The position numbers were made by a program, and so were the translations under genes. Shown in pieces: positions 4,188 to 57,080 of a stretch of DNA of 64,000 nucleotides. The first letter of the stretch is position 1. Every line of letters starts with the position of its first letter. A model generated the notes under the pieces. That model saw nothing but the letters and a program-made list of their open reading frames with translations. It did not search any database and was not told the DNA's origin. The stretch is taken from the NCBI RefSeq assembly GCF_988242995.1, contig NZ_OZ547043.1. One strand, written 5' to 3'.

Positions 4188-5245
4188 CCGAACCGTTAAA
4201 ACCACGTATTGATTTCGACGGTCCACTGGAGGTTGATCAGAATCCAAAATTCAGGGCGCAACAGACCTTTGACGAAAATCAGGCGCAAAATTTTGCCCCG
4301 GCCACGCTCGACGAAGCGCAGGAAGAAGAGGGGCAAGTTGAAGCGGTGATGGACGCAGCGTTACGTCCGAAACGCAGCCTGTGGCGCAAAATGGTGATGG
4401 GCGGGTTGGCTCTGTTTGGCGCAAGCGTTGTCGGGCAGGGCGTGCAGTGGACAATGAACGCCTGGCAAACTCAGGATTGGGTAGCGCTGGGTGGATGTGC
4501 CGCTGGGGCATTGATTATCGGCGCTGGCGTAGGTTCTGTGGTAACAGAGTGGCGGCGCTTATGGCGCTTGCGACAGCGCGCCCATGAACGCGACGAAGCG
4601 CGCGATTTGTTGCACAGTCACGGTACGGGTAAAGGCCGCGCATTTTGCGAAAAACTGGCGCAGCAGGCGGGCATCGACCAGTCGCATCCGGCACTGCAAC
4701 GCTGGTATGCCTCAATCCATGAAACGCAAAACGATCGTGAAGTGGTCAGCCTGTATGCTCATCTGGTCCAGCCGGTTTTAGATGCCCAGGCGCGGCGCGA
4801 AATCAGCCGTTCGGCGGCGGAATCAACGTTGATGATTGCGGTCAGCCCGCTGGCGCTGGTGGATATGGCATTTATCGCCTGGCGCAATCTGCGTTTGATC
4901 AATCGCATCGCCACGCTGTATGGCATTGAACTGGGATATTACAGCCGTTTGCGCCTGTTTAAGCTGGTATTGCTGAATATCGCTTTCGCCGGAGCCAGCG
5001 AACTGGTGCGCGAAGTGGGGATGGACTGGATGTCGCAAGATCTCGCTGCGCGTTTGTCTACCCGGGCAGCTCAGGGGATTGGTGCAGGACTTCTGACGGC
5101 ACGACTGGGGATTAAAGCTATGGAGCTTTGCCGCCCTCTGCCGTGGATTGACGATGACAAACCTCGCCTCGGGGATTTCCGTCGTCAGCTTATCGGTCAG
5201 GTGAAAGAGACGCTGCAAAAAGGCAAAACGCCCAGCGAAAAATAA
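4184..5245 (+). CDS. ycjF: YcjF family inner membrane protein (DUF697)
   Basis: 353 aa; start overlaps ycjX stop (coupled). Confidence 0.9.
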
Positions 5246-35624: not shown

Positions 35625-36337
35625 TTGTGCACAGAAAACCCCCAGCTAGGCTGGGGGTTCCGGAAAGCTTTCAGCTTTGAGCCAGTTATTAAAACCCCTT
35701 TTGATTTGTTAAAACACTTTGCGGTCTGGCAACTGCAAGTGTCAAACAAGAAATCAAAAGGGGGTCCCAATGGGGAACGAAAAGAGCTTAGCGCACACCC
35801 GATGGAACTGTAAATATCACATAGTTTTTGCGCCAAAATACCGAAGACAGGTGTTCTACAGAGAGAAGCGTAGAGCAATAGGCAGTATTTTGAGAAAGCT
35901 GTGTGAGTGGAAAAGCGTACGGATTCTGGAAGCTGAATGCTGTGCAGATTATATCCATATGCTTGTGGAGATCCCGCCCAAAATGAGCGTATCCGGCTTT
36001 ATGGGATATCTGAAAGGGAAAAGCAGTCTGATGCTTTACGAGCAGTTTGGTGATTTGAAATTCAAATACAGGAACAGGGAGTTCTGGTGCAGAGGGTACT
36101 ACGTCGATACAGTGGGTAAGAACACGGCGAAGATACAGGATTACATAAAGCACCAGCTTGAAGAGGATAAAATGGGAGAGCAGTTATCGATTCCCTATCC
36201 GGGCAGCCCGTTTACGGGCCGTAAGTAACGAAGTTGGATGCAAATGTCAGATCGTGTGCGCCTGTTAGGGCGCGGCTGGTAAGAGAGCCTTATAGGCGCA
36301 TTTGAAAAACCTCCGGCTATGCCGGAGGATATTTATT
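35625..36337 (+). mobile_element. IS200-type insertion sequence, copy A
   Basis: About 711 bp near-identical to copy B; left-end hairpin CCCCCAGCTAGGCTGGGGG, right-end hairpin CCTCCGGCTATGCCGGAGG; contains tnpA. Confidence 0.9.
35770..36228 (+). CDS. tnpA: IS200/IS605 family Y1 (HUH) transposase TnpA
   Basis: 152 aa MGNEKSLAHTRWNCKYHIVFAPKYRRQVFY with HxH motif CADYIHMLVEIPP. Confidence 0.92.
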   Translation: MGNEKSLAHTRWNCKYHIVFAPKYRRQVFYREKRRAIGSILRKLCEWKSVRILEAECCADYIHMLVEIPPKMSVSGFMGYLKGKSSLMLYEQFGDLKFKYRNREFWCRGYYVDTVGKNTAKIQDYIKHQLEEDKMGEQLSIPYPGSPFTGRK

Positions 36338-42843: not shown

Positions 42844-43884
42844 CTAGGAGGCTTTGATTATATTAAGCAAATGTTTTCCAATCGTTTCAGACATCTTCGG
42901 AGGGACCGCATTTCCTATTTGACGAGCCCGAGATTGCAAAGAACCAATAAATTTATAATCCAAAGGAAATGTTTGTAGACACGCTGCTTCACGAACCGAT
43001 ATTGCTCGATTTTGTGTTGGATGTCCAAAACGTCCATTTGAATAGCTAATACAACGAGTTGTTAGTCCGCTGGCTGGTTTGTCCCAACTCAAACGTCCAT
43101 ATACGTCTGTATGCCCTTTATGGTTACGATGGCATTCTAAAATCAATTCATCTGGCCAAAATTCTCGACTTCCACCTTCAGGAGTGCATTTTATTCTACG
43201 TAAATTAAGCTCTGATAAGCGTGCAGCTTCATGATCAGGAATACTATTATGCTTTTCTCCTGCTTCTATCTTCGGTAAATTAGCGATCCAGTCCTTTACT
43301 GTTGAATAGGGAGTATTTCCAACCCCATGTGTAGGAGAAGGCAATGCGACATAAAAATCCTTGGATGCAATGAGCACTAATCTTTCTCGCGTCTGTGGTA
43401 CACCGTACCACGCAGCTGGCATTACTTTATAATCTACACTATATCCCTTTGATGAAAGCATTTCTAAAAACATCATGAATGTTCCTTCATTTTTGTTAAA
43501 CTTTTGCATTCCTGGCACGTTTTCAACAAAAATAAAATCAGGCATATAATGCTCTACAAAGCGACTGAATTCCTTTAATAGATCTAATCGTGGATCATCA
43601 TTTTTCTTATTTGAGTTTTGCTTAGAGTACGGTTGACAAGGCGCACATCCTGAAAAAAGAATGTAATCATTACGATGTTTTTTTACTAACTTGTTTATGG
43701 CATTGTTGTCGATTAACCTAATGTCCGAGTTAATAAAAGCAGCCTGCGGGAAATTTGCACGAAATGAACTGGCTGCATCAACGTCGAAATCGAGGCCAAA
43801 AACAATATCCATTCCAGCTTGATGGAAACCTTGGCTGGTTCCACCACAACCGGAAAAGAAGTCAAACACTTTGATTTTTTTCAT
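42844..43884 (-). CDS. DNA (cytosine-5)-methyltransferase
   Basis: 346 aa from MKKIKVFDFFSGCGG; motif I FSGCGG, motif IV GCAPCQPYS, motif VI ENVPGM, motif VIII QTRERLVLIA, motif X GNAVPP; RBS AGAGGGA. Confidence 0.9.
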   Translation of the reverse strand: MKKIKVFDFFSGCGGTSQGFHQAGMDIVFGLDFDVDAASSFRANFPQAAFINSDIRLIDNNAINKLVKKHRNDYILFSGCAPCQPYSKQNSNKKNDDPRLDLLKEFSRFVEHYMPDFIFVENVPGMQKFNKNEGTFMMFLEMLSSKGYSVDYKVMPAAWYGVPQTRERLVLIASKDFYVALPSPTHGVGNTPYSTVKDWIANLPKIEAGEKHNSIPDHEAARLSELNLRRIKCTPEGGSREFWPDELILECHRNHKGHTDVYGRLSWDKPASGLTTRCISYSNGRFGHPTQNRAISVREAACLQTFPLDYKFIGSLQSRARQIGNAVPPKMSETIGKHLLNIIKAS

Positions 43885-43907
43885 TTTTCCCTCTGCATCC
43901 AGAATCA

Positions 43908-45737
43908 CTACCTAATGATACCACGGTCAAGAGCCTGAGTAATTATTTTTCTTATTTTTATAAATTCAGGCAATTCATTTTTAAGTCTTGCGGTCATCAT
44001 TTGTTGGAGGCAAAAAATTTCCTCTGCATTTACTTCTTCTTTATCATACAGGTGTTGCGCTAATAATCTTATTTGATTCTTATACAGTTCTGGATCATTA
44101 GAACTCCAGGTCTGTGAATCAATTATTTCTTTTTCACTTGGCGTAATTGCCTTTTCAATGAGTAATTGTTCGGGAGTATCAAATGGTAAATACTTCACTT
44201 TATTGAATGCATACTCAAGCACTTGCCTTTTGAGTCTATTAGATTCTTGTTCATTTTTTTTGCCATTACTACCACTGGCATTGATAATTAACTCGCAACC
44301 ATAATATTTGCACATTGTATTAACTAAATCAGCATCAGCAATTTCACTAATTCTTACTGGTTTTATTTTTTTGTTTTTATCACCATCAAGTAAAAACAAA
44401 ATATCATTGCGTTCTACCACAGCGTAACTGGGAAGATGCTTGCTTAAAATGGTCTCCGAACCACCTGGTATATAACTTACACTAAATGATAAGCTTAATC
44501 TTTCATCATTTTTAATCGCTTTATCTATAATTGCTTTAGCTAATTTATCTTCTACAATTATTGTTTTCTTGTTAATATCATGCCCTAGCTCTATAAAAGC
44601 TTCATCCGGTGCTATATTTTGAACTATTTTAGCTGTTTCACTCTCTTCATCAAAAACAAATAATTTAATGGCATCTTTGGGAAGAGTGTTCACAATAACA
44701 GGAGAATGGGTTGATATTACCACTTGATGTTTTTTCTGCTCAACAATAGAGTACAGAACATCCATCATCCTTTTTTGTGCACCAGGGTGAAGTGAAACTT
44801 CTGGTTCGTCAAGAAGAATTAATGAATTAGGTTTGGCCGAATAAATATTGAGTATTAGTGAAACTATTGCAAATTCACCACTTCCAGCAAACGCTTCTGT
44901 ATAGTTCAACTTATCAGTTGAAAGTAAAGCGGTTCCTCCTCTGGTTCCAAATAACCGATGCTCAAGAAATTTAATGACTTTATATTTTTTCCCTAATATA
45001 AATGAGACGTGCTCAACTAGTTCTGGCGCCAAGGTTATATTTTTAACAATGGTTTCCGCCCCCCAGAGTCTTAAATTACTTAGCTTTTCATCAAAAGCTT
45101 TCTTTATATATTTAGATTTGCTTCTGATATAGTCTTGCTTTGTAATTAATACACCACTCTTCTTCTTTCTTAATTTAAAATCAGAGTGATACATACATCT
45201 ATCAAATGCACTTATTTCCGATCTGAAATCTAGGAAAACCAATCCCTTCTTGATTTTTTTCCATCTGGTTGCATTACTATTAGCACCCAGATCATCCGAA
45301 ATACTCTCCATGTTATCACCAACAGATGGTCGACTTGTTTCCCAATAATCGATTGTTTTCTTGGTAGCATTGATACGTGCTTGGAGTATTTCAACTAAAC
45401 GGCCATCAGCATTTTTATATCCATATATATATCTAGGTTTAAGAGAACTGCCATCAGCAAGTTTTAGGTCAGGAAACTCATCTGTTTCAGTTGTGAACCA
45501 ATAACGAGTTATATTTTTACCATGTGGGCAACCAAATAGCGCTTTGATAACAGAACTTTTATTAGTTCCATTTTTTCCTACTAAAGCCGTTATAGGGAAC
45601 TGAAAATCGATCCTTGCATTCTGCTCTATATTTTTAAAGTATGGAAAACGGATATGTTGTATGAATGGTTCAAATTCACCGTTTTTTAACGCGCACTGGA
45701 GTGTTCGAATTTTGCTCTTGTATGCGGAAGTGCTCAT
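43908..45737 (-). CDS. ABC-type ATPase fused to C-terminal Toprim-like domain (OLD-family-like nuclease candidate)
   Basis: 609 aa; Walker A LVGKNGTNKSS, Walker B/D-loop SLILLDEPEVSLHP, H-loop VISTHSPVI; C-terminal IIVEDKLAKA glutamate and FLLDGDKN DxD suggest Toprim; 23 bp upstream of MTase on same strand. Confidence 0.7.
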   Translation of the reverse strand: MSTSAYKSKIRTLQCALKNGEFEPFIQHIRFPYFKNIEQNARIDFQFPITALVGKNGTNKSSVIKALFGCPHGKNITRYWFTTETDEFPDLKLADGSSLKPRYIYGYKNADGRLVEILQARINATKKTIDYWETSRPSVGDNMESISDDLGANSNATRWKKIKKGLVFLDFRSEISAFDRCMYHSDFKLRKKKSGVLITKQDYIRSKSKYIKKAFDEKLSNLRLWGAETIVKNITLAPELVEHVSFILGKKYKVIKFLEHRLFGTRGGTALLSTDKLNYTEAFAGSGEFAIVSLILNIYSAKPNSLILLDEPEVSLHPGAQKRMMDVLYSIVEQKKHQVVISTHSPVIVNTLPKDAIKLFVFDEESETAKIVQNIAPDEAFIELGHDINKKTIIVEDKLAKAIIDKAIKNDERLSLSFSVSYIPGGSETILSKHLPSYAVVERNDILFLLDGDKNKKIKPVRISEIADADLVNTMCKYYGCELIINASGSNGKKNEQESNRLKRQVLEYAFNKVKYLPFDTPEQLLIEKAITPSEKEIIDSQTWSSNDPELYKNQIRLLAQHLYDKEEVNAEEIFCLQQMMTARLKNELPEFIKIRKIITQALDRGIIR

Positions 45738-48038: not shown

Positions 48039-48751
48039 TTGTGCACAGAAAACCCCCAGCTAGGCTGGGGGTTCCGGAAAGCTTTCAGCTTTGAGCCAGT
48101 TATTAAAACCCCTTTTGATTTGTTAAAACACTTTGCGGTCTGGCAACTGCAAGTGTCAAACAAGAAATCAAAAGGGGGTCCCAATGGGGAACGAAAAGAG
48201 CTTAGCGCACACCCGATGGAACTGTAAATATCACATAGTTTTTGCGCCAAAATACCGAAGACAGGTGTTCTACAGAGAGAAGCGTAGAGCAATAGGCAGT
48301 ATTTTGAGAAAGCTGTGTGAGTGGAAAAGCGTACGGATTCTGGAAGCTGAATGCTGTGCAGATTATATCCATATGCTTGTGGAGATCCCGCCCAAAATGA
48401 GCGTATCCGGCTTTATGGGATATCTGAAAGGGAAAAGCAGTCTGATGCTTTACGAGCAGTTTGGTGATTTGAAATTCAAATACAGGAACAGGGAGTTCTG
48501 GTGCAGAGGGTACTACGTCGATACAGTGGGTAAGAACACGGCGAAGATACAGGATTACATAAAGCACCAGCTTGAAGAGGATAAAATGGGAGAGCAGTTA
48601 TCGATTCCCTATCCGGGCAGCCCGTTTACGGGCCGTAAGTAACGAAGTTGGATGCAAATGTCAGATCGTGTGCGCCTGTTAGGGCGCGGCTGGTAAGAGA
48701 GCCTTATAGGCGCATTTGAAAAACCTCCGGCTATGCCGGAGGATATTTATT
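48039..48751 (+). mobile_element. IS200-type insertion sequence, copy B
   Basis: Near-identical to copy A, same orientation, same terminal hairpins. Confidence 0.9.
48184..48642 (+). CDS. tnpA: IS200/IS605 family Y1 transposase TnpA
   Basis: Identical 152 aa product to copy A. Confidence 0.92.
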   Translation: MGNEKSLAHTRWNCKYHIVFAPKYRRQVFYREKRRAIGSILRKLCEWKSVRILEAECCADYIHMLVEIPPKMSVSGFMGYLKGKSSLMLYEQFGDLKFKYRNREFWCRGYYVDTVGKNTAKIQDYIKHQLEEDKMGEQLSIPYPGSPFTGRK

Positions 48752-51064: not shown

Positions 51065-51201
51065 AATCTTAACTACAATATGATTCATTTTGATGATTGT
51101 TTCATAAGGAACAGTGAAGTAAGATCTAAGAGGAGTTAAATTTTATACAGTATAATCATAATATTGCAGCAAGGTGGTTATAATTGAAAGAATATTTAGA
51201 T

Positions 51202-52659
51202 ATGAATACATCTCATGTAAGAGTTGTTACTCATATGTGTGGGTTCCTGGTTTGGCTCTATAGTCTTTCAATGTTGCCACCAATGGTTGTAGCATTGTTT
51301 TATAAAGAAAAAAGCCTGTTTGTTTTCTTTATAACTTTCGTTATATTTTTTTGCATTGGTGGCGGAGCGTGGTATACAACTAAGAAATCTGGCATTCAAT
51401 TACGTACCCGTGATGGGTTTATTATAATTGTAATGTTTTGGATTTTGTTTTCTGTTATTAGTGCATTCCCTTTATGGATTGACTCAGAACTTAATTTAAC
51501 GTTCATTGATGCTCTGTTTGAAGGGGTTTCTGGAATAACAACAACAGGAGCAACTGTAATTGATGATGTTAGTTCATTACCTCGGGCATATTTGTACTAT
51601 CGGTCACAGTTAAATTTTATAGGTGGTTTAGGAGTTATTGTTCTGGCGGTTGCTGTATTGCCATTATTGGGTATTGGTGGTGCAAAGCTTTATCAGTCAG
51701 AAATGCCGGGGCCATTTAAGGATGACAAACTCACTCCCCGCCTGGCCGATACGTCACGGACACTGTGGATAACTTATTCTTTATTAGGTATTGCTTGTAT
51801 TGTCTGTTATAGACTTGCAGGAATGCCTTTGTTTGATGCTATTTGTCACGGGATTTCCACAGTTTCGCTTGGTGGTTTCTCAACTCATAGCGAGAGTATC
51901 GGATATTTTAATAACTATTTGGTTGAGCTGGTGGCTGGTTCTTTTTCCCTGCTATCGGCTTTCAACTTCACTCTTTGGTATATTGTTATTAGCAGGAAAA
52001 CGATAAAACCTTTAATCAGAGATATTGAACTTCGTTTCTTTCTGTTAATAGCCTTAGGTGTGATCATTGTTACCTCTTTCCAGGTCTGGCATATAGGTAT
52101 GTATGACTTGCATGGAAGTTTTATTCATTCGTTTTTTCTTGCCAGCTCCATGCTCACTGATAATGGTTTAGCTACGCAGGATTATGCAAGTTGGCCCACG
52201 CACACGATAGTGTTTTTGCTGTTGTCAAGTTTCTTTGGGGGATGTATAGGTTCAACTTGTGGTGGAATTAAGTCACTTCGATTTCTTATACTTTTCAAAC
52301 AAAGCAAACACGAGATAAATCAGCTTTCTCATCCCAGAGCGTTGTTGAGTGTAAATGTAGGAGGGAAGATAGTTACAGATCGTGTAATGAGGTCTGTATG
52401 GAGTTTCTTTTTTCTTTATACTCTCTTCACGGTGTTTTTTATACTGGTGTTAAATGGTATGGGATATGATTTTCTTACATCATTTGCAACAGTGGCTGCA
52501 TGCATTAATAATATGGGATTAGGTTTTGGGGCTACTGCATCGTCATTCGGAGTGCTTAATGACATTGCAAAATGTTTAATGTGCATAGCTATGATTCTTG
52601 GTCGCCTTGAAATTTATCCTGTTATTATATTGTTTTCAGGTTTTTTTTGGCGCTCCTAA
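51202..52659 (+). CDS. trkG: Potassium uptake protein TrkG (TrkH paralogue, prophage-borne)
   Basis: 485 aa from MNTSHVRVVTHMCGFLVWLYS; AT-rich codon usage. Confidence 0.92.
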   Translation: MNTSHVRVVTHMCGFLVWLYSLSMLPPMVVALFYKEKSLFVFFITFVIFFCIGGGAWYTTKKSGIQLRTRDGFIIIVMFWILFSVISAFPLWIDSELNLTFIDALFEGVSGITTTGATVIDDVSSLPRAYLYYRSQLNFIGGLGVIVLAVAVLPLLGIGGAKLYQSEMPGPFKDDKLTPRLADTSRTLWITYSLLGIACIVCYRLAGMPLFDAICHGISTVSLGGFSTHSESIGYFNNYLVELVAGSFSLLSAFNFTLWYIVISRKTIKPLIRDIELRFFLLIALGVIIVTSFQVWHIGMYDLHGSFIHSFFLASSMLTDNGLATQDYASWPTHTIVFLLLSSFFGGCIGSTCGGIKSLRFLILFKQSKHEINQLSHPRALLSVNVGGKIVTDRVMRSVWSFFFLYTLFTVFFILVLNGMGYDFLTSFATVAACINNMGLGFGATASSFGVLNDIAKCLMCIAMILGRLEIYPVIILFSGFFWRS

Positions 52660-52796
52660 TATATGGCTGATTTATAATTGTGAGTTTAATATTATGTTGA
52701 CTCACTCATTGATCCAATACCTAACTTTACCAGCAACACCTCCGTCCCCAGTAGCACTGGCTGCTGGGGTGCGTTTTATTCATAAAGCAAGGCTGT

Positions 52797-53588
52797 ATGA
52801 GCGAGAAATTAAAGATAGTCTATCGCCCATTACAAGAATTGTCACCGTATGCGCACAACGCCAGGACGCACAGTACTGAGCAGGTGGCACAACTGGTAGA
52901 AAGTATTAAGCAATTCGGCTGGACTAATCCGGTGCTGATTGACGAAAAGGGCGAAATTATTGCGGGTCACGGTCGTGTTATGGCGGCTGAAATGCTCAAA
53001 ATGGATTCTGTTCCGGTCATTGTTCTGTCTGGCCTGACGGATGAGCAGAAAAAGGCGTACCGCCTGGCAGATAATCGCCTGCCGATGAATGCTGGCTGGG
53101 ATGAAGATCTGTTGCGGATGGAGCTGTCGGACCTAATCAATGCTGATTTTGATGTCTCCCTGACAGGCTTCATCCCGACAGAAATTGATGAACTGTTGAC
53201 GGATGTTTTGCCCGGTACAGGAAATGAGGAGGAGCCGTATACGACGAAAATTGATACGCCTGTTTATGAGCCGTCGGGCGGTAAACCGGATATCAGTGAA
53301 CTGTACGACGATACGAAAACTCAGGAGCTGATCAGCCGGATACGTTCGGCGTCCCTTGAGCCTGATATTGAGAAATTCCTCCTGTGTGCGGCAGAACGTC
53401 ACACGGTGTTTAATTTCAGCAGAATTGCGGACTATTACGCTCACGCCCCCTCTGAAATTCAGTGTTTTTTCGAGGAGTCGGCGCTGGTGATCATTGATTA
53501 TCAGCAGGCTATTGAAAATGGATTTGTCCGGATGACGCAGCGCATGGTGGAGATCATGCATGGTGGTGAGGAGGAGGAATATGCGTGA
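52797..53588 (+). CDS. ParB-like nuclease domain protein (full-length counterpart of K-12 ynaK)
   Basis: 263 aa; ParB/Srx-type motif IIAGHGRVMAA. Confidence 0.65.
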   Translation: MSEKLKIVYRPLQELSPYAHNARTHSTEQVAQLVESIKQFGWTNPVLIDEKGEIIAGHGRVMAAEMLKMDSVPVIVLSGLTDEQKKAYRLADNRLPMNAGWDEDLLRMELSDLINADFDVSLTGFIPTEIDELLTDVLPGTGNEEEPYTTKIDTPVYEPSGGKPDISELYDDTKTQELISRIRSASLEPDIEKFLLCAAERHTVFNFSRIADYYAHAPSEIQCFFEESALVIIDYQQAIENGFVRMTQRMVEIMHGGEEEEYA

Positions 53589-54513
53589 TGATTTTTGCGC
53601 CTTTATTCTGACTCACGGGCGACCGGACAAAGTTCTGACTTACCGGACGTTGCGTCGTGCTGGCTATACCGGGAAAATTTTTATCGTTGTTGATGATGAA
53701 GATAAGACACGGCATCAGTACATGGCTGAATTTGGTGAACAGGTGCTGGTGTTTTCCAAAGCCGATATCGCCAGTCGTTTTGACGAAGCCGATAATTTCT
53801 GTGACCGCCGCTCAATTTTTTACGCCCGTAATGCCTGTTTCGACCTGGCAAAACTGGTCGGGTGTAAATACTTCATTCAGCTCGATGATGATTATCACGA
53901 GTTCCAGTTTCGGGTGGATCGCAACTATGACCAGGCCTATTTTCCGATAAGGAAACTGGATGCGATCCTTTCTGAAATGCTGGCGTACTACGAATCAATA
54001 CCTGCTCTTTCCATCGCTATGTCGCAGGGCGGGGATTTTCTTGGTGACAATGGCGGCCATGCTTCGTGGGTGAAACGCAAGGCAATGAACAGCTTTATCT
54101 GTTCGGTTGATCGACCGTTCTCATTCATGGGGCGCATTAACGAGGATGTGAATACGTACACGAATCTCGGTCGCTGTGGTGAATTGTTTATGACGATCGG
54201 TGCTGTCCAGTTAGGGCAGAAACAGACGCAGAAAAACAGCGGCGGAATGACCGAGCTGTATCTGGATTCCGGAACCTACGTTAAAAGTTTTTACTCCGTC
54301 ATGTATGCGCCGTCGTGCGTAAAAATTTCACTGATGGGTGCCAGCCATAAACGCATTCACCATCAGGTCACCTGGAACAACGCTGCAGTAAAAATCCTTC
54401 ACGAAAAATACAGGAAGAAGACACCCTGCATATCAATGGGGGTGACAAATGATTCCGTATTCGAAAGTCGAGTCTCTGGCAGCGTGCCGGATGACTGCAC
54501 AACAAATCGCTGA
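53581..54513 (+). CDS. Hypothetical protein with acidic DDDY motif, function unknown
   Basis: about 310 aa from MRDDFCAFILTHGRPDKV; IFIVVDDEDK and FIQLDDDYHEF segments. Confidence 0.5.
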   Translation: MRDDFCAFILTHGRPDKVLTYRTLRRAGYTGKIFIVVDDEDKTRHQYMAEFGEQVLVFSKADIASRFDEADNFCDRRSIFYARNACFDLAKLVGCKYFIQLDDDYHEFQFRVDRNYDQAYFPIRKLDAILSEMLAYYESIPALSIAMSQGGDFLGDNGGHASWVKRKAMNSFICSVDRPFSFMGRINEDVNTYTNLGRCGELFMTIGAVQLGQKQTQKNSGGMTELYLDSGTYVKSFYSVMYAPSCVKISLMGASHKRIHHQVTWNNAAVKILHEKYRKKTPCISMGVTNDSVFESRVSGSVPDDCTTNR

Positions 54514-54700
54514 CGTTCTGGATGTTGATCTGAACCGACTGAAAGAAAATCGGGAAGCAATGACAGATTTTTATGCGGCCATCCGTAAGGGCAGAGCGAA
54601 AGGTGAAGCCGAGTTACGAGCGGCATTGTTTAAGCTTGCCAGAAAAGGGGATGCCTTTGCTCTGCGCGAACTACTCAGGGTGGATAAAAATCAGGACTAA
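54491..54700 (+). CDS. Small hypothetical protein upstream of terminase (start uncertain)
   Basis: ORF 54449..54700; internal Met MTAQQIADVLDV gives about 69 aa. Confidence 0.4.
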   Translation: MTAQQIADVLDVDLNRLKENREAMTDFYAAIRKGRAKGEAELRAALFKLARKGDAFALRELLRVDKNQD

Positions 54701-54703
54701 CTG

Positions 54704-55798
54704 ATGAGCAGACCGGACTGGGGGGCGTTGCAGCAGGAGTATATTGCTGAATACACCCGCTCCGGTATATCTCCGGTGGCATGGTGTGAAGCAAGGGGAC
54801 TGAATTACGCAACAGCCCGTCGTTACATCAAAAAAACTCCGAAAAATGCGCAGACAGAAATGTGCAAAACTGCGCAAAAAAGTGCGCAGAAAAAATCTGC
54901 GCAGACTGCACAAAAGCGGAACGAAAAATCTCAGGAAAAAAAGCCAGTATTCGATGCGGGCCTGAATGAGGGCGACGCGGAGGAATTTTCGTTCTGTCCC
55001 GATGAATTCGGCATTTCTGACCAGCAGGCTAAGTTTGCGATGCTTGTTGCTCAGGGTAAAAAGCCGACAGAGGCGTACCGACTAGCCGGTTATGAGGGGC
55101 AAGGTGCGACAGCTAACAGCAACGCCAGTCGTATGCTTAGAAATGCCAGGGTTTTTCGCGCTATCAGCTACTTCCGCAATCAGTACCAGAAACGCTATAC
55201 CGCAGACCTGGATTTACTAGTGAGTCAGTTGATGGCTATTGTCCTGGCCGACCCCAATCAGCTTGCACAATTTCGCCGTGTTAACTGCCGTTATTGCTGG
55301 GGCGAGAATCATCTCTACCAGTGGCGCGATATAGCAGAATTCGACAAGGCAGCGGCGCAGGCTTCCAGAGATGGCAAACCCGAACCGGAATATGGAGGCC
55401 TCGGCTTTGTTGATAACGCCATACCCAATCCGGACTGCCCGAAGTGCTGCGGTGAGGGAACGGGACAGCTTTATATGGCTGATACCACTCTGCTTGATGG
55501 GGATGCGCGGCAATTATATGCAGGGGCAAAATTCGGAAAATTCGGCGTTGAGATCCTGCTGGAGGATAAGGCTGCCGCCCGGCGTGAATTGTTGCGTTTG
55601 TTTTCTGCTGGCGGGGCTTTATGTGCAGATAAACGGCTACAGGAACTGGAAATTGAACGGCGCAGAATGGAAAACCAGAAGCTGCGCAAAGAGATCGAAA
55701 CGGTGGAAGATAATGAACATCCCCAGCCTGTGGCGATCAATATTAATGTGGTTGATGCCAGAGTAAGGAGTGATGAAGATGATCTCTCCGACGCTTAA
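54704..55798 (+). CDS. Terminase small subunit (candidate)
   Basis: 364 aa; N-terminal HTH-like SGISPVAWCEARGLNYATARRYIKK; directly upstream of large terminase. Confidence 0.55.
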   Translation: MSRPDWGALQQEYIAEYTRSGISPVAWCEARGLNYATARRYIKKTPKNAQTEMCKTAQKSAQKKSAQTAQKRNEKSQEKKPVFDAGLNEGDAEEFSFCPDEFGISDQQAKFAMLVAQGKKPTEAYRLAGYEGQGATANSNASRMLRNARVFRAISYFRNQYQKRYTADLDLLVSQLMAIVLADPNQLAQFRRVNCRYCWGENHLYQWRDIAEFDKAAAQASRDGKPEPEYGGLGFVDNAIPNPDCPKCCGEGTGQLYMADTTLLDGDARQLYAGAKFGKFGVEILLEDKAAARRELLRLFSAGGALCADKRLQELEIERRRMENQKLRKEIETVEDNEHPQPVAININVVDARVRSDEDDLSDA

Positions 55799-57080
55799 TG
55801 TGCCTCAGGCGCGATTTCTTTCAATGCCCCATAAATTTAAAGCCTATATTGCTGGTTTTGGCTCGGGCAAAACATGGGTTGGGTGTAGCGGCATATGCAA
55901 GGGGATTTGGGAGCATCCAGGTATAAATCAGGGATATTTTGCGCCAACGTATCCCCAAATTCGCGATATTTTTTACCCTACAGTGGAAGAAGTTGCTGCT
56001 GACTGGGGATTGAACGTAAAAATTAATGAGGGAAATAAAGAGGTTCACTTTTATTACGGACGCCAGTATCGGGGAACCACTATCTGCAGATCGATGGAGA
56101 AGCCACAAACGATCGTCGGTTTCAAAATTGGTAATGCGTTGGTGGATGAACTGGACATTTTGCCGAAGGAAAAAGCCAGAACGGCGTGGCGCAAGATAAT
56201 TGCACGTATGCGTTATAAGATTGATGGACTTCGCAACGGTATTGACGTTACAACCACGCCGGAAGGATTCAAATTTGTCTACGAGCAGTTTGTTAAAGCC
56301 GTGCGTGAAAAAACAGAGCTGGCCTCACTGTATGGTCTGGTGCAGGCATCTACTTTCGATAATGAAAAGAACCTGCCAGCAGATTACATTCCTTCGCTTC
56401 TTGAATCATACCCTCCAGAGCTGATTAAAGCCTATCTTCGAGGACAGTTTACTAACCTGACAAGTGGTACTGTTTACCATCAGTTTGACCGGAAACTGAA
56501 TAATTGCGAAGAAGTGGAGCAGCCAGGGGAGCCGATTTATATTGGGATGGATTTTAACGTTGGAAAGATGGCGGGAATCGTCCATGTGCTGCGTTTGGGG
56601 CTTCCATGTGCGGTAACTGAAATCATCAATGCCTACGATACGCCGGATATGATCCGCATCATTAAAGAACGCTTCTGGCTGTATGATGGGAATGATTACC
56701 GGAAAGTGAGGGAAATTTATATTTATCCAGATGCTTCCGGGGATTCCAGAAAATCAAGTAACGCAAGTACGACGGATATAGCCCAGCTTAAGCAGGCTGG
56801 TTTTAACGTTGTGGTGAACAGCTCGAACCCGCCAGTAAAAGATCGCGTTAACTCAATGAATGCAATGTTCTGCAATGCCAATGGTGAGCGTCGCTATAAA
56901 GTTAATGTGAAGCGTTGCCCGTTATATGCCGAATCTCTGGAGCAACAGGTCTGGGATGAGAAGGGGGAGCCTGATAAAAAATCTGGCAATGATCACCCGA
57001 ATGATGCCGGAGGTTATTTCATCGTTAAGCAATTCCCTATTGTCAAACCGACCGGAAGAGTCACATCACTTCGGATTTAA
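55770..57080 (+). CDS. Terminase large subunit
   Basis: 436 aa; Walker A AGFGSGKTW; C-terminal acidic nuclease-like region; start codon uncertain among M1/M2/M4. Confidence 0.75.
   Translation: MMKMISPTLNVPQARFLSMPHKFKAYIAGFGSGKTWVGCSGICKGIWEHPGINQGYFAPTYPQIRDIFYPTVEEVAADWGLNVKINEGNKEVHFYYGRQYRGTTICRSMEKPQTIVGFKIGNALVDELDILPKEKARTAWRKIIARMRYKIDGLRNGIDVTTTPEGFKFVYEQFVKAVREKTELASLYGLVQASTFDNEKNLPADYIPSLLESYPPELIKAYLRGQFTNLTSGTVYHQFDRKLNNCEEVEQPGEPIYIGMDFNVGKMAGIVHVLRLGLPCAVTEIINAYDTPDMIRIIKERFWLYDGNDYRKVREIYIYPDASGDSRKSSNASTTDIAQLKQAGFNVVVNSSNPPVKDRVNSMNAMFCNANGERRYKVNVKRCPLYAESLEQQVWDEKGEPDKKSGNDHPNDAGGYFIVKQFPIVKPTGRVTSLRI

Follow-up and report, generated by a model that had tools for sequence, protein, structure and literature searches.

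We wondered what a protein of 310 amino acids, encoded between a ParB-like gene and the terminase genes of an E. coli prophage, might do for its phage. The window, that is the whole stretch of 64,000 nucleotides that was analysed, is an E. coli prophage, lambdoid and Rac-like. An earlier note on this DNA had called the protein unassigned, had likened two of its acidic segments to those of DxD-type nucleotide-sugar transferases or metal-dependent nucleotidyltransferases, had suggested that it might glycosylate or otherwise modify DNA or protein, and had set its gene between a ParB-like gene and the packaging genes. This placement was confirmed by the order of features given here, in which the protein is called TAGT after the family to which we assign it and the ParB-like protein is called its partner:

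52746-52769, + strand: terminator-like hairpin past trkG and before the partner gene (10-bp stem, 7 of its pairs GC, with a T-rich tail behind it)
52797-53588, + strand: ParB/Srx-fold partner of 263 aa, corresponding to E. coli YnaK at full length (Pfam ParB_N, PHROG 620, RefSeq)
52797-53207, + strand: N-terminal ParB/Srx nucleotide-binding-type domain of the partner with a short helical segment, residues 1-137 (sequence matches)
53238-53546, + strand: C-terminal domain of the partner, residues 148-250, a probable TAGT-docking adaptor (conservation, co-divergence with TAGT)
53568-53588, + strand: translational coupling, with the Shine-Dalgarno sequence GAGGAGGAGGAA within the end of the partner gene and then the start/stop overlap ATGCGTGA (read from the sequence)
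53581-54513, + strand: TAGT, predicted TAGT-family GT-A glycosyltransferase of 310 aa (Pfam PF20691, PHROG 842, AF2, Foldseek)
54449-54700, + strand: small ORF overlapping the tail of TAGT and resembling part of a small terminase subunit (PHROG 309, E 8e-23)
54704-55798, + strand: small terminase subunit, TerS (Pfam Terminase_2, PHROG 51)
55770-57080, + strand: large terminase subunit, TerL (Pfam Terminase_6N, Terminase_6C)

The TAGT reading frame runs on the + strand from the ATG at 53581 to a stop codon ending at 54513, and its translation holds both acidic segments, IFIVVDDEDK as residues 33-42 and FIQLDDDYHEF as residues 98-108. An alternative in-frame ATG lies upstream at 53560. We favour 53581 because a strong Shine-Dalgarno sequence (GAGGAGGAGGAA, 53568-53579) lies just ahead of it and because it overlaps the stop codon of the partner gene (ATGCGTGA); RefSeq uses the same start. 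The protein matched Pfam PF20691 (TET-associated glycosyltransferase) with 122.3 bits (E 3.4e-35; gathering cutoff 27.5), residues 8-222 aligning to profile positions 4-205 of 205, and PHROG 842 with E 6e-104. Its homologues in the 90% clusters number at least 8000 and are typically about 285-290 aa long, and tblastn gave 40-47% identity to proteins of Lactobacillus, Nocardia and haloarchaeal viruses. Given this score, the number of homologues and the identity across phyla, the reading frame is not a chance one but a real gene, and by sequence we assign it with confidence to PF20691. That TAGT keeps this identity across phyla and to a protein of an archaeal virus further argues for strong purifying selection. 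The label 'unassigned' therefore holds for NCBI naming only: RefSeq calls the protein 'hypothetical protein' or 'GREB1-related protein', a name also used by UniRef, and an NCBIfam search gave zero matches, whereas Pfam and PHROGs do assign it.

An AF2 model of TAGT (pLDDT 85.4, pTM 0.83) places the catalytic core and a conserved C-terminal region in residues 1-280, while residues 290-310 form a disordered tail (pLDDT <50) exclusive to E. coli-type sequences. When the model was compared with the PDB using Foldseek, all 43 matches at E<=1e-3 were GT-A-type nucleotide-sugar enzymes at about 10% identity, including SunS, SpsA, GnT-I, GalNAc-T2, K4CP and ADP-glucose pyrophosphorylase. On this modelling we are confident that TAGT adopts a GT-A fold with a single Rossmann-like domain. 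GT-A enzymes that act on phage DNA share with the trypanosome base-J glucosyltransferase (JGT) the active-site signature R...DDD...ED(Y/F) (bioRxiv 10.1101/2023.12.21.572611). Its elements were traced in two TAGT alignments, A1 with 14 diverse sequences and A2 with 61 sequences:

53620-53622, + strand: codon of R14, first element of the signature, invariant in A1 and A2
53884-53892, + strand: codons of D102-D103-D104, the DxD (DDD) motif for metal and nucleotide-sugar binding, invariant in A1 and A2
54142-54147, + strand: codons of E188-D189 (INEDVNTY), third element of the signature (alignments A1, A2)

R14, D102, D103, D104 and D189 are invariant across the 61 homologues and E188 is conserved at >=90%. 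The two acidic segments thus differ in standing: LDDDY, the middle of the signature, is the invariant catalytic DxD, whereas D38-D41 of VVDDEDK are conserved at >=90% but fall short of invariance. TAGT is hence predicted, from its sequence and model, to be an active-looking, metal-dependent (DDD) nucleotide-sugar glycosyltransferase. As the 'DDDY' singled out in the earlier note is the catalytic DxD, its guess of a DxD-type nucleotide-sugar transferase was right. The nucleotidyltransferase option gained no support from either family or fold and can be dismissed, the pyrophosphorylases being weak, partial GT-A-like matches. Nor did the protein fall into a structural or packaging family devoid of catalytic acidic motifs; it belongs to PF20691 with its motifs intact.

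The partner matched Pfam ParB_N (PF02195) with 29.3 bits (cutoff 26.3) and PHROG 620 with E 1e-90, and RefSeq names it ynaK or ParB/Srx family. It aligns to the N-domain of Spo0J (PDB 1vz0), the GERR box of which corresponds to GHGR at residues 57-60, and its N-domain has N21, R23, G57, R60 and D92/N93 as conserved residues. We considered and rejected a full-length partition ParB. The N-terminal (CTPase-fold) domain with its GxxR box is present, but TIGR00180, with 38.1 bits, stayed below its cutoff of 58.45 and covered residues 11-94 alone, Pfam matched no HTH domain, and a ParA-type family was absent from the scanned prophage ORFs, the partner being flanked by trkG and TAGT. A replacement for TerS was rejected as well, since 132 of 146 loci leave a TAGT-TerL gap of 301-1500 nt, enough for a TerS gene. 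A recognisable DNA-binding domain was found in neither TAGT nor its partner.

Instead, the N-domain leads to DNA-modifying enzymes. It is 53% identical (E 4e-45) to residues 16-150 of gp03 of Verrucomicrobia phage P8625, a ParB_N+N6_N4_Mtase protein whose gene lies about 1 kb before TerL, in the same slot just upstream of the terminase, and it is matched by the PADLOC MTase_II model PDLC03229 (E 1.5e-38) and by PHROG 498 'DNA methyltransferase' (E 9e-51). Fusion to a DNA methyltransferase is typical for phage ParB-fold proteins (PMC12704722), and these matches suggest that the partner N-domain is an exchangeable module common to ParB-DNA-methyltransferase fusions. The architectures differ: in the fusions a single chain includes the catalytic domain, whereas in the cassette the C-terminal domain behind the ParB domain is non-catalytic and the catalytic part, the glycosyltransferase, is a second protein made by translational coupling.

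The two genes form an obligate cassette, and their pairing is near-universal. In the TAGT clade 85 of 87 loci have a ParB-like gene directly before TAGT, in the same orientation and overlapping it, and in a second clade, 27% identical, it lies immediately upstream at all 64 evaluable loci; overlaps of 3-28 nt between the two genes are the rule. The hosts are Proteobacteria, Firmicutes, Actinobacteria and Bacteroidetes, plus that of a haloarchaeal virus, with examples in Lactobacillus phages phi jlb1 and c5, Nocardia phage NTR1, a Porphyromonas phage and the haloarchaeal virus HHTV-2. Within E. coli, the cassette matched 1579 of 5426 complete genomes (about 29%), and 1144 E. coli records share its sequence at >=99% identity.

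What ties the partner to TAGT appears to be its C-terminal domain. This is its best-conserved region, with the signature Y-[TS]-x-K-[IV]-x-x-P-x-Y-E-P...FLxxAAxRHxVF...IAxYYAH...SALVIIDFxKAIExG and invariant residues Y157, A199, R201, A211, Y214, E226, V231 and D234. The domain has no Pfam or PDB match, is undescribed, and occurs in 1417 clusters at 50% identity. Profile searches of this domain and of TAGT against PDB sequences gave no meaningful match (Adhesin A, at E 0.017, was discarded as coiled-coil noise). Pairwise distances in the C-terminal domain correlate with those in TAGT at r=0.81, compared with r=0.11 for the N-domain; the C-terminal domain is thus co-inherited with TAGT. We also modelled partner and TAGT as one fused chain with AF2, where the case for a complex is made by pTM (0.67) and pLDDT: the C-terminal domain and an extended PxYEP peptide reached pLDDT 84-97, and an extra beta-strand appeared at TAGT residues 271-274. 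In this model the partner consists of the N-domain (1-135), a disordered stretch (136-150) and a helical C-terminal domain (173-255). Co-inheritance and model suggest that the C-terminal domain probably binds TAGT and that the two proteins would form a physical complex.

TerL lies at most 3 kb downstream of TAGT in 143 of 159 evaluable loci, and in phage c5 the ParB-like/TAGT pair is the first gene set past the cos site. The terminase and capsid families downstream vary widely from locus to locus beside an unchanging cassette, and no third gene recurs beside it among 87 loci. We considered an essential role in packaging, which was ruled out by Pseudomonas phage D14P: its TerL is 71% identical and it lacks the cassette, so the cassette is accessory and dispensable for this terminase type. 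Since the hairpin separates trkG from the pair, the pair should be read within the Q-antiterminated late transcript and not from the trkG promoter. By analogy to lambdoid late-operon organisation, we therefore infer late transcription via Q antitermination.

We then asked which acceptor the sugar might find. To our knowledge, sugars are added to phage DNA solely as the final step of pathways that have first installed a hydroxymethyl or hydroxyl group as a handle (T-even phages, TET/5mYOX clusters, base J), and every characterised TAGT-family reaction uses an O-nucleophile (hmC/hmU, glucose, Ser/Thr). Pfam scans of the prophage ORFs detected no TET/JBP (PF12851), no ThyA-like hydroxymethylase and no alpha/beta-GT, so this prophage lacks the acceptor used by all characterised relatives. 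The complete annotation of the 31.8-kb phage c5 lists none of these enzymes, and they are likewise absent from three Pfam-annotated contigs (L010-L012). As a weak test, PF12851 was not among the best 25 of 71 Pfam families listed for 112 neighbour-cluster representatives, where TET_JBP was not recurrent. A jackhmmer search with ThyA matched 1 of about 167 related loci; at locus L095 a thymidylate synthase adjoins the cassette. The acceptor can therefore be neither a 5-hydroxymethyl group nor glucosyl-HMC unless such bases come from an undetected source. As canonical DNA offers no O-nucleophile, an action of TAGT on DNA needs unprecedented chemistry or an unseen precursor. In the literature we found no report of modified DNA for any phage with the cassette and no functional study on ParB plus glycosyltransferase, on phage GREB1-like proteins or on ynaK/ydaY. 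The gene ydaY turned out to be an unrelated tail-region gene.

Like the 5mYOX/TET-linked phage GT-A enzymes and JGT, TAGT combines a PF20691 match, a GT-A fold and the R...DDD...ED(Y/F) signature, and like many 5mYOX clusters as described it is phage-encoded near ParB-like and terminase genes. Unlike these clusters, the cassette comes without 5mYOX/TET, a C5-methyltransferase partner or a thymidylate-synthase-like hydroxymethylase, and TAGT is paired directly and obligately with a ParB-like protein bearing a dedicated C-terminal domain. ParB-like proteins activate phage thymine dioxygenases on dsDNA, as ParB176 does with 5mYOX176 (O'Toole et al., PNAS 2026, PMC13229309), and a YnaK-type partner may act likewise. 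By the published description, ParB176 shares with the partner a nucleotide-binding domain, short helices, a disordered linker, a C-terminal domain and the lack of an HTH; the partner also keeps the N/R/GxxR nucleotide-binding residues and has terminase genes nearby. The enzymes served differ, 5mYOX176 being a Fe/2OG dioxygenase and the enzyme beside YnaK a glycosyltransferase.

The database name given to this clade is misleading. PHROG 842 and RefSeq phage records label the clade 'beta-glucosyl-HMC-alpha-glucosyltransferase', and the T2/T6 enzyme of that name (YP_010067197.1) shares PF20691 and the PHROG-derived name with TAGT. The T6 enzyme is, however, only marginally related to the TAGT clade: it scored 37 bits on PF20691, and hhalign of A2 against it gave a non-significant probability of 0.1%, the sole aligned stretch being the ED motif (LCEDMYAF in T6). 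A tblastn search with TAGT found homologues in T4-like Aeromonas phages at 22-24% identity (E ~1e-4). The T6 enzyme has gp42 and an alpha-GT nearby and no ParB partner, and the prophage TAGT is the reverse on all three counts; the scanned prophage ORFs include no gp42-type, ThyA-like dCMP hydroxymethylase and no first-step alpha/beta-GT, and TAGT has no close sequence relationship to the characterised T6 enzyme. As the prophage makes no HMC, we regard the name as over-annotated for this clade.

From these data we infer, tentatively and at somewhat less than an even chance, that TAGT is most likely a late-expressed, ParB-guided glycosyltransferase acting on phage DNA. The ParB-like subunit would bring TAGT to dsDNA or activate it there, and phage DNA would be glycosylated from a nucleotide-sugar donor after replication, around the time of packaging, as suggested by the position of the cassette at the head of the packaging operon and its presumed late transcription in a lambdoid prophage. 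The assumed benefit would be protection from host nucleases. A bolder version, that the cassette is a self-sufficient two-protein machine placing sugar onto canonical DNA during packaging without prior hydroxymethylation, strikes us as possible and rather doubtful; we know of no DNA glycosyltransferase for which such direct chemistry is established. If true, it would be carried by about 29% of complete E. coli genomes and by viruses whose hosts cover at least four bacterial phyla and haloarchaea.

The main rival is a protein glycosyltransferase, in which TAGT would sugar its ParB-like partner or a packaging or virion protein from the adjacent genes. Here the partner would be substrate or scaffold, with Tyr157, or Tyr148/Thr149, of YTxKIxxPxYEP as glycogenin-like candidate sites. 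Tyr157 is invariant and lies in a non-helical peptide for which pLDDT 84-94 is reached only when the pair is modelled together, and the domain around it co-varies with TAGT. GREB1, which contains a TAGT domain, O-GlcNAcylates ER-alpha (PMC7968844), and some E. coli copies are named after it; unlike phage TAGT, GREB1 is a large protein of vertebrates that lacks a ParB partner and occurs outside any viral setting. Among the Foldseek neighbours are the peptide S-glycosyltransferases SunS/ThuS, GalNAc-T2, ColGalT1 and glycogenin, but their scores do not separate acceptor types. Further points in favour are that the prophage holds no detected DNA hydroxyl acceptor and that the cassette directly precedes terminase and head genes. 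On the other side, the changing terminase and capsid families beside a constant cassette make a particular structural protein an unlikely target. A protein-directed enzyme would also leave the partner N-domain hard to account for, a module that phages fuse to DNA methyltransferases and that retains its nucleotide-binding residues. We consider protein glycosylation unlikely.

The choice between DNA and protein as acceptor bears on what the cassette means. A same-family enzyme is found here without a handle-making pathway in the prophage, tied to a ParB-like adaptor and spread over a large, host-diverse set of viruses. If DNA is modified, the chemistry or the precursor would be new, and restriction, type IV and glycosylase-based defences would see temperate E. 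coli phages differently. If a protein is modified, viruses would have in this cassette a new system for glycosylating proteins that is linked to packaging. In both cases, the idea of a ParB-fold delivery or activation subunit, developed for methyltransferases and dioxygenases, would extend to glycosyltransferases.

Distinctly improbable, in our view, is a moron glycosyltransferase for lysogenic conversion or anti-defence, acting on LPS, teichoic acid, a nucleotide signal or a host factor and playing no part in modifying phage DNA or phage proteins. The wall-polymer glycosyltransferase TarS and the nucleoside glycosyltransferase AvpGT are among the structural neighbours (Foldseek), the wall-polymer enzyme TarP is cited in bioRxiv 10.1101/2023.12.21.572611, and the E. 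coli cassette sits in a moron-rich slot beside trkG and is dispensable for this terminase type. Yet Gram-negative, Gram-positive, actinobacterial, Bacteroidetes and haloarchaeal hosts share no envelope polymer, neither the TAGT sequence nor its AF2 model shows an evident signal peptide or membrane segment, and no PADLOC model matches TAGT. The hairpin, moreover, lies between trkG and the pair, which forms part of the late operon.

Equally hard to sustain, and to us highly improbable, is a conventional glycosyltransferase acting on 5hmC/5hmU, or on glucosyl-HMC like the T2/T6 enzyme, made by a dioxygenase or hydroxymethylase encoded elsewhere, as the RefSeq/PHROG label would have it. PF20691 is indeed common to the T6 enzyme and the TET-linked glycosyltransferases, PHROG 842 carries the matching name, ParB, glycosyltransferases and terminases are the commonest neighbours of phage 5mYOX genes (PMC13229309), and the thymidylate synthase at L095 fits this reading. 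Against these stand the handle-making enzymes missing from the scanned prophage ORFs (PF12851, ThyA-like, alpha-GT, beta-GT) and from the c5 annotation, the lack of a recurrent third gene, the distance of the T6 enzyme, which sits beside gp42 without a ParB partner, and the single ThyA-like match among about 167 loci. The window prophage does carry a C5-cytosine methyltransferase, but on the opposite strand and paired with an OLD/PtuA-like ATPase, and it is missing from another E. coli prophage with an identical cassette.

That TAGT is an inactive remnant, a decaying gene of a defective prophage with no current function, is scarcely credible: in E. coli K-12 Rac, ynaK is truncated and the TAGT gene lost, and only 888 of the 1579 matching E. 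coli genomes carry >=80% of the two-gene query, but here the reading frame is intact with all catalytic residues and its translational coupling, the sequence is nearly identical across the E. coli records, and the window prophage retains complete lysis, terminase and head genes. Over the small ORF at the tail of TAGT, RefSeq annotates 54491-54700 as hypothetical.

The 310-aa ORF with the segments IFIVVDDEDK and FIQLDDDYHEF, to which the earlier note drew attention, is present on the plus strand and runs from an ATG at 53581 to a stop codon at 54513. This start has GAGGAGGAGGAA (53568-53579) ahead of it, shares the overlap ATGCGTGA with the stop codon of the upstream gene and is also used in the RefSeq annotation; a second in-frame ATG lies upstream at 53560. 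The flanking genes had been described correctly as well, with a ParB_N-domain protein upstream and terminase genes downstream:

52797-53588, plus strand: ParB_N-domain protein of 263 aa (Pfam and PHROG scans), hereafter the partner
54449-54700, plus strand: small TerS-like ORF resembling part of the small terminase subunit (PHROG 309), overlapping the tail of the 310-aa ORF
54704-55798, plus strand: TerS
55770-57080, plus strand: TerL

The protein clearly belongs to a known family, the TET-associated glycosyltransferases (TAGT; PF20691, 122.3 bits at a Pfam cutoff of 27.5), and is matched end to end by PHROG 842. No model for it was found in NCBIfam or PADLOC, and a sequence search of the PDB detected no chain. 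An AF2 model built with 61 homologues (pLDDT 85.4, pTM 0.83) is confident except for the tail (residues 290-310), which is predicted to be disordered. Foldseek placed the model solely among nucleotide-sugar enzymes of the GT-A type at approximately 10% identity, comprising glycosyltransferases (SunS/ThuS, SpsA, GnT-I, GalNAc-T2, chondroitin polymerase, ColGalT1, AvpGT and glycogenin) and a few weak, partial matches to ADP-glucose pyrophosphorylase. Across the 61 sequences, with identities down to 25%, D102-D103-D104 and D189 are invariant, as are R14, K167, K235 and H261. E188 and H260 are nearly invariant, and a second acidic run, D38-D41, shows good conservation short of invariance. The invariant residues fit the active-site signature R...DDD...ED(Y/F) reported in 5mYOX-linked phage GT-A DNA glycosyltransferases and the T. 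cruzi base-J glucosyltransferase (bioRxiv 10.1101/2023.12.21.572611). The acidic 'DDDY', previously noted as reminiscent of sugar transferases, is therefore the DxD motif (D102-D104) of this signature. E. coli-type TAGTs carry an extra C-terminal tail of approximately 25-30 aa (54429-54513 in the window). Homologues, at about 285-290 aa, lack it, and it may be no more than a functionless product of read-through.

Characterised members of the family include the T2/T6 beta-glucosyl-HMC-alpha-glucosyltransferase, which puts a second glucose on glucosyl-HMC (PMC13216743, PMC13390438), TET/5mYOX-linked glycosyltransferases acting on 5hmC (PMC8256090) and GREB1, which carries a TAGT domain and glycosylates a protein (PMC7968844). 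RefSeq phage records apply the name 'beta-glucosyl-HMC-alpha-glucosyltransferase' to the clade of the window TAGT; homologues so labelled in RefSeq/GenBank records (L003, L004, L005, L008 and L009) come from Lactobacillus, haloarchaeal, Vibrio and Porphyromonas viruses. The T6 enzyme differs, however, in that its gene adjoins gp42 with an alpha-GT nearby, in that it scores only 37 bits on PF20691, and in that hhalign gave no significant alignment between it and this clade. No HMC pathway is annotated in the inspected regions or genome of the viruses labelled in this way, and we know of no phage so labelled in this clade that makes HMC. Because of this, we regard the label as a transfer of family name rather than of function, probably an over-annotation spread from PHROG 842.

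The pairing of the two genes extends far beyond E. coli. Among 87 loci (the 80 best IMG/VR loci plus isolated phages), a partner homologue lies immediately upstream of TAGT on the same strand in 85, usually with an overlap of 3-28 nt. Paired examples are Lactobacillus phages phi jlb1 and c5, Nocardia phage NTR1, a Porphyromonas phage, the haloarchaeal virus HHTV-2 and, with a short partner, 191-kb Vibrio phages. The same arrangement was found for a second TAGT clade, 27% identical to the window protein, in each of the 64 loci whose upstream sequence was long enough. Of 159 evaluable loci, 143 have TerL no more than 3 kb downstream of TAGT, mostly after 301-700 nt, which leaves room for a TerS, and in phage c5 the pair comes first after the cos site. 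The cassette is accessory, since it is missing from Pseudomonas phage D14P, whose TerL is 71% identical.

Some loci depart from this layout. Short partners of approximately 135-150 aa, consisting of the ParB N-domain alone without the C-terminal domain, occur in Vibrio phage pv27 (L008, 5459-5878) and at loci L055 and L059; in the 191-kb Vibrio phages the TAGT has an N-terminal extension of approximately 35 aa and is surrounded by replication genes instead of standing ahead of the terminase. These cassettes suggest another mode of coupling both proteins. At locus L166 (1104-3245), a 713-aa protein with ParB_N at residues 421-501 lies upstream of TAGT and the C-terminal domain is matched on a separate ORF. 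A cassette-bearing metagenomic phage (L010, 15837-16894; L011, 8659-9716) carries two Glycos_transf_2 genes right after its capsid gene, which may be a separate virion-glycosylation system.

Residues 1-135 of the partner align to the ParB/Spo0J N-domain (PDB 1vz0), GERR of Spo0J being aligned to GHGR of the partner. N21, R23, G57, R60 and D92/N93 are conserved among partners and correspond to nucleotide-binding residues discussed for ParB176, the ParB-like activator of the phage thymine dioxygenase 5mYOX176 (PMC13229309). The best-conserved region is not the N-domain but residues 148-250, which include Y-[TS]-x-K-[IV]-x-x-P-x-Y-E-P-x-G-x-K-P, followed by FLxxAAxRHxVF, IAxYYAH and SALVIIDFxKAIExG, and contain the invariant residues Y157, A199, R201, A211, Y214, E226, V231 and D234. 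This C-terminal domain matched no Pfam family (PF23887 only below threshold) and no PDB relative. Its profile retrieved 1417 clusters at 50% identity (865 at E<=1e-30), always as the C-terminal part of proteins of approximately 250-300 aa; among the best 150 of these clusters, ParB_N was detectable by Pfam in 50 and GmrSD_N in 3, and no fusion to TAGT was found.

In 26 diverse pairs, the correlation of pairwise distances was r=0.81 between the C-terminal domain and TAGT, r=0.11 between the ParB N-domain and TAGT and r=0.16 between the ParB N-domain and the C-terminal domain. Judged by these sequence distances, TAGT and the C-terminal domain are co-inherited and the N-domain is shuffled. The window N-domain is 53% identical (E 4e-45) to that of gp03 of Verrucomicrobia phage P8625, a fusion of ParB_N to an N6_N4 DNA methyltransferase encoded approximately 1 kb upstream of TerL; its identity to the corresponding domain in many other partners of TAGT is lower. 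The partner N-domain is also hit by the methyltransferase models of PADLOC and PHROG. A 2025 survey gives DNA methyltransferases and DUFs as the typical fusion partners of phage ParB-fold domains, with no mention of glycosyltransferases (PMC12704722).

We modelled the pair as a fused chain in AF2 (partner, 25-aa Gly-Ser linker and TAGT residues 1-288; paired alignment of 26 rows). In this model (pTM 0.67, pLDDT 80.9) the partner is disordered in its linker (136-150) and has a pLDDT of 84-97 over residues 151-258, which include the non-helical PxYEP peptide, and TAGT residues 271-274 form a beta-strand that is not in the TAGT-only model. Confident placement of TAGT and the C-terminal domain, about 390 of the 576 residues, with a free N-domain would give roughly such a pTM, and the model is suggestive of a complex. 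Taken together with translational coupling, universal adjacency and co-inheritance, it makes it likely that the C-terminal domain binds TAGT. TAGT would then be the catalytic subunit, tethered by the C-terminal domain, and the ParB/Srx N-domain, which other phages use to carry methyltransferases, would bring it to DNA or activate it there, a role that resembles the ParB-dependent activation of thymine dioxygenases on dsDNA (PMC13229309). The pair would act late in infection, beside the packaging machinery. This DNA-targeting model is the best supported.

Its weak point is the chemistry. To our knowledge, all characterised TAGT-family members attack an O-nucleophile, and canonical DNA has none. 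No TET/JBP, thymidylate-synthase-like hydroxymethylase, alpha-GT or beta-GT came up in Pfam scans of the prophage ORFs. In the complete 31.8-kb genome of Lactobacillus phage c5, which contains the cassette, no modification enzyme is annotated, and three Pfam-annotated metagenomic contigs hold no enzyme that would make such a handle. Only the partner and the terminase recur among the 87 loci, the largest upstream cluster being present in at most 10. In a Pfam census of neighbour representatives, no TET_JBP recurred among 25 listed of 71 families; a rare TET is possible. A ThyA search matched one of approximately 167 loci, L095, where a true thymidylate synthase (4193-4987; PF00303, E 2e-124) lies directly upstream of the pair, an unusual architecture. 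As canonical DNA offers no O-nucleophile and no precursor pathway was detected, action on DNA requires a new DNA acceptor or an undetected precursor. The prophage does encode a C5-cytosine methyltransferase:

42844-43908, minus strand: C5-cytosine DNA methyltransferase, 354 aa (PF00145; PADLOC MTase_II/DruM-like)
42844-45737, minus strand: this methyltransferase followed by an ATPase, together a moron with the replication genes on one side and the nin/Q region on the other

The ATPase (609 aa, AAA_21/AAA_15) resembles OLD, PtuA, Gabija GajA and 'HEC-04', and the two look like a methylation-associated defence pair separate from the TAGT cassette; the methyltransferase is missing from another E. 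coli prophage with an identical cassette.

The main rival is glycosylation of a protein, either at the partner's invariant tyrosine or on a packaging protein. GREB1 provides a precedent and the structural neighbours include enzymes directed at proteins and peptides, but the partner N-domain is of the methyltransferase type and the downstream structural genes are diverse. A T6-type function, a TET encoded elsewhere, an envelope or small-molecule target and a dead gene all fit poorly.

Earlier literature already flags loose co-occurrence of ParB, glycosyltransferase and terminase genes as well as 'solitary' TAGTs, counted without known role in 288 of 753 phage genomes in a NAR 2026 paper; a 2023 preprint reported no neighbouring base-modification enzyme for approximately 65% of glycosyltransferase-bearing viral contigs (bioRxiv 10.1101/2023.12.21.572611). 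We found no description of a strict two-gene cassette, of a dedicated C-terminal adaptor domain or its co-inheritance with TAGT, of N-domain exchange with methyltransferase fusions, or of the breadth of the cassette across bacteria, haloarchaeal viruses and approximately 29% of complete E. coli genomes. The latter figure reflects matches to the two-gene stretch, which is 100% identical to E. coli chromosomes, in 1579 of 5426 genomes, 888 of which carry at least 80% of it. E. coli K-12 lacks the TAGT gene. The acceptor question lends itself to direct test in E. coli.

The surrounding genes show a Rac-type lambdoid prophage, with an integrase, RecE/RecT, early genes of the YdaS/T/U/V/W type, a Q-like antiterminator, holin, lysozyme, Rz, a trkG moron and P22-type head genes; the partner gene is YnaK in full-length form. 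Because the same cassette, terminase and head module is also found in an icd-site prophage with a different early region, the cassette travels within a mosaic late module. We infer late expression of the pair, on the Q-antiterminated transcript. Further features of the prophage are:

51184-52659, plus strand: trkG (potassium-transporter moron), between the Rz/Rz1 lysis genes and the ParB-like gene
52746-52769: terminator-like hairpin after trkG
35719-36228, plus strand: ORF of 169 aa with a TTG start
48133-48642, plus strand: ORF of identical length, also with a TTG start, containing MGNEKSLAHTRWNCKYHIVFAPKYRR...

The trkG position holds other cargo in related E. coli-type loci, and one neighbour-cluster representative matches the heat-labile enterotoxin A chain (PF01375, E 4e-119). 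In RefSeq the intact ParB-like gene (263 aa) is a truncated pseudogene, 'ynaK, missing C-terminus', in some genomes (L001, 20001-20258) and a full CDS in others (L002, 20001-20792) despite identical DNA; the truncated YnaK of K-12 is the probable source of the naming model. The ORF with MGNEKSLAHTRWNCKYHIVFAPKYRR presumably resembles an IS200/IS605-type Y1 transposase, and the two 169-aa ORFs are probably two IS200 copies within the prophage.
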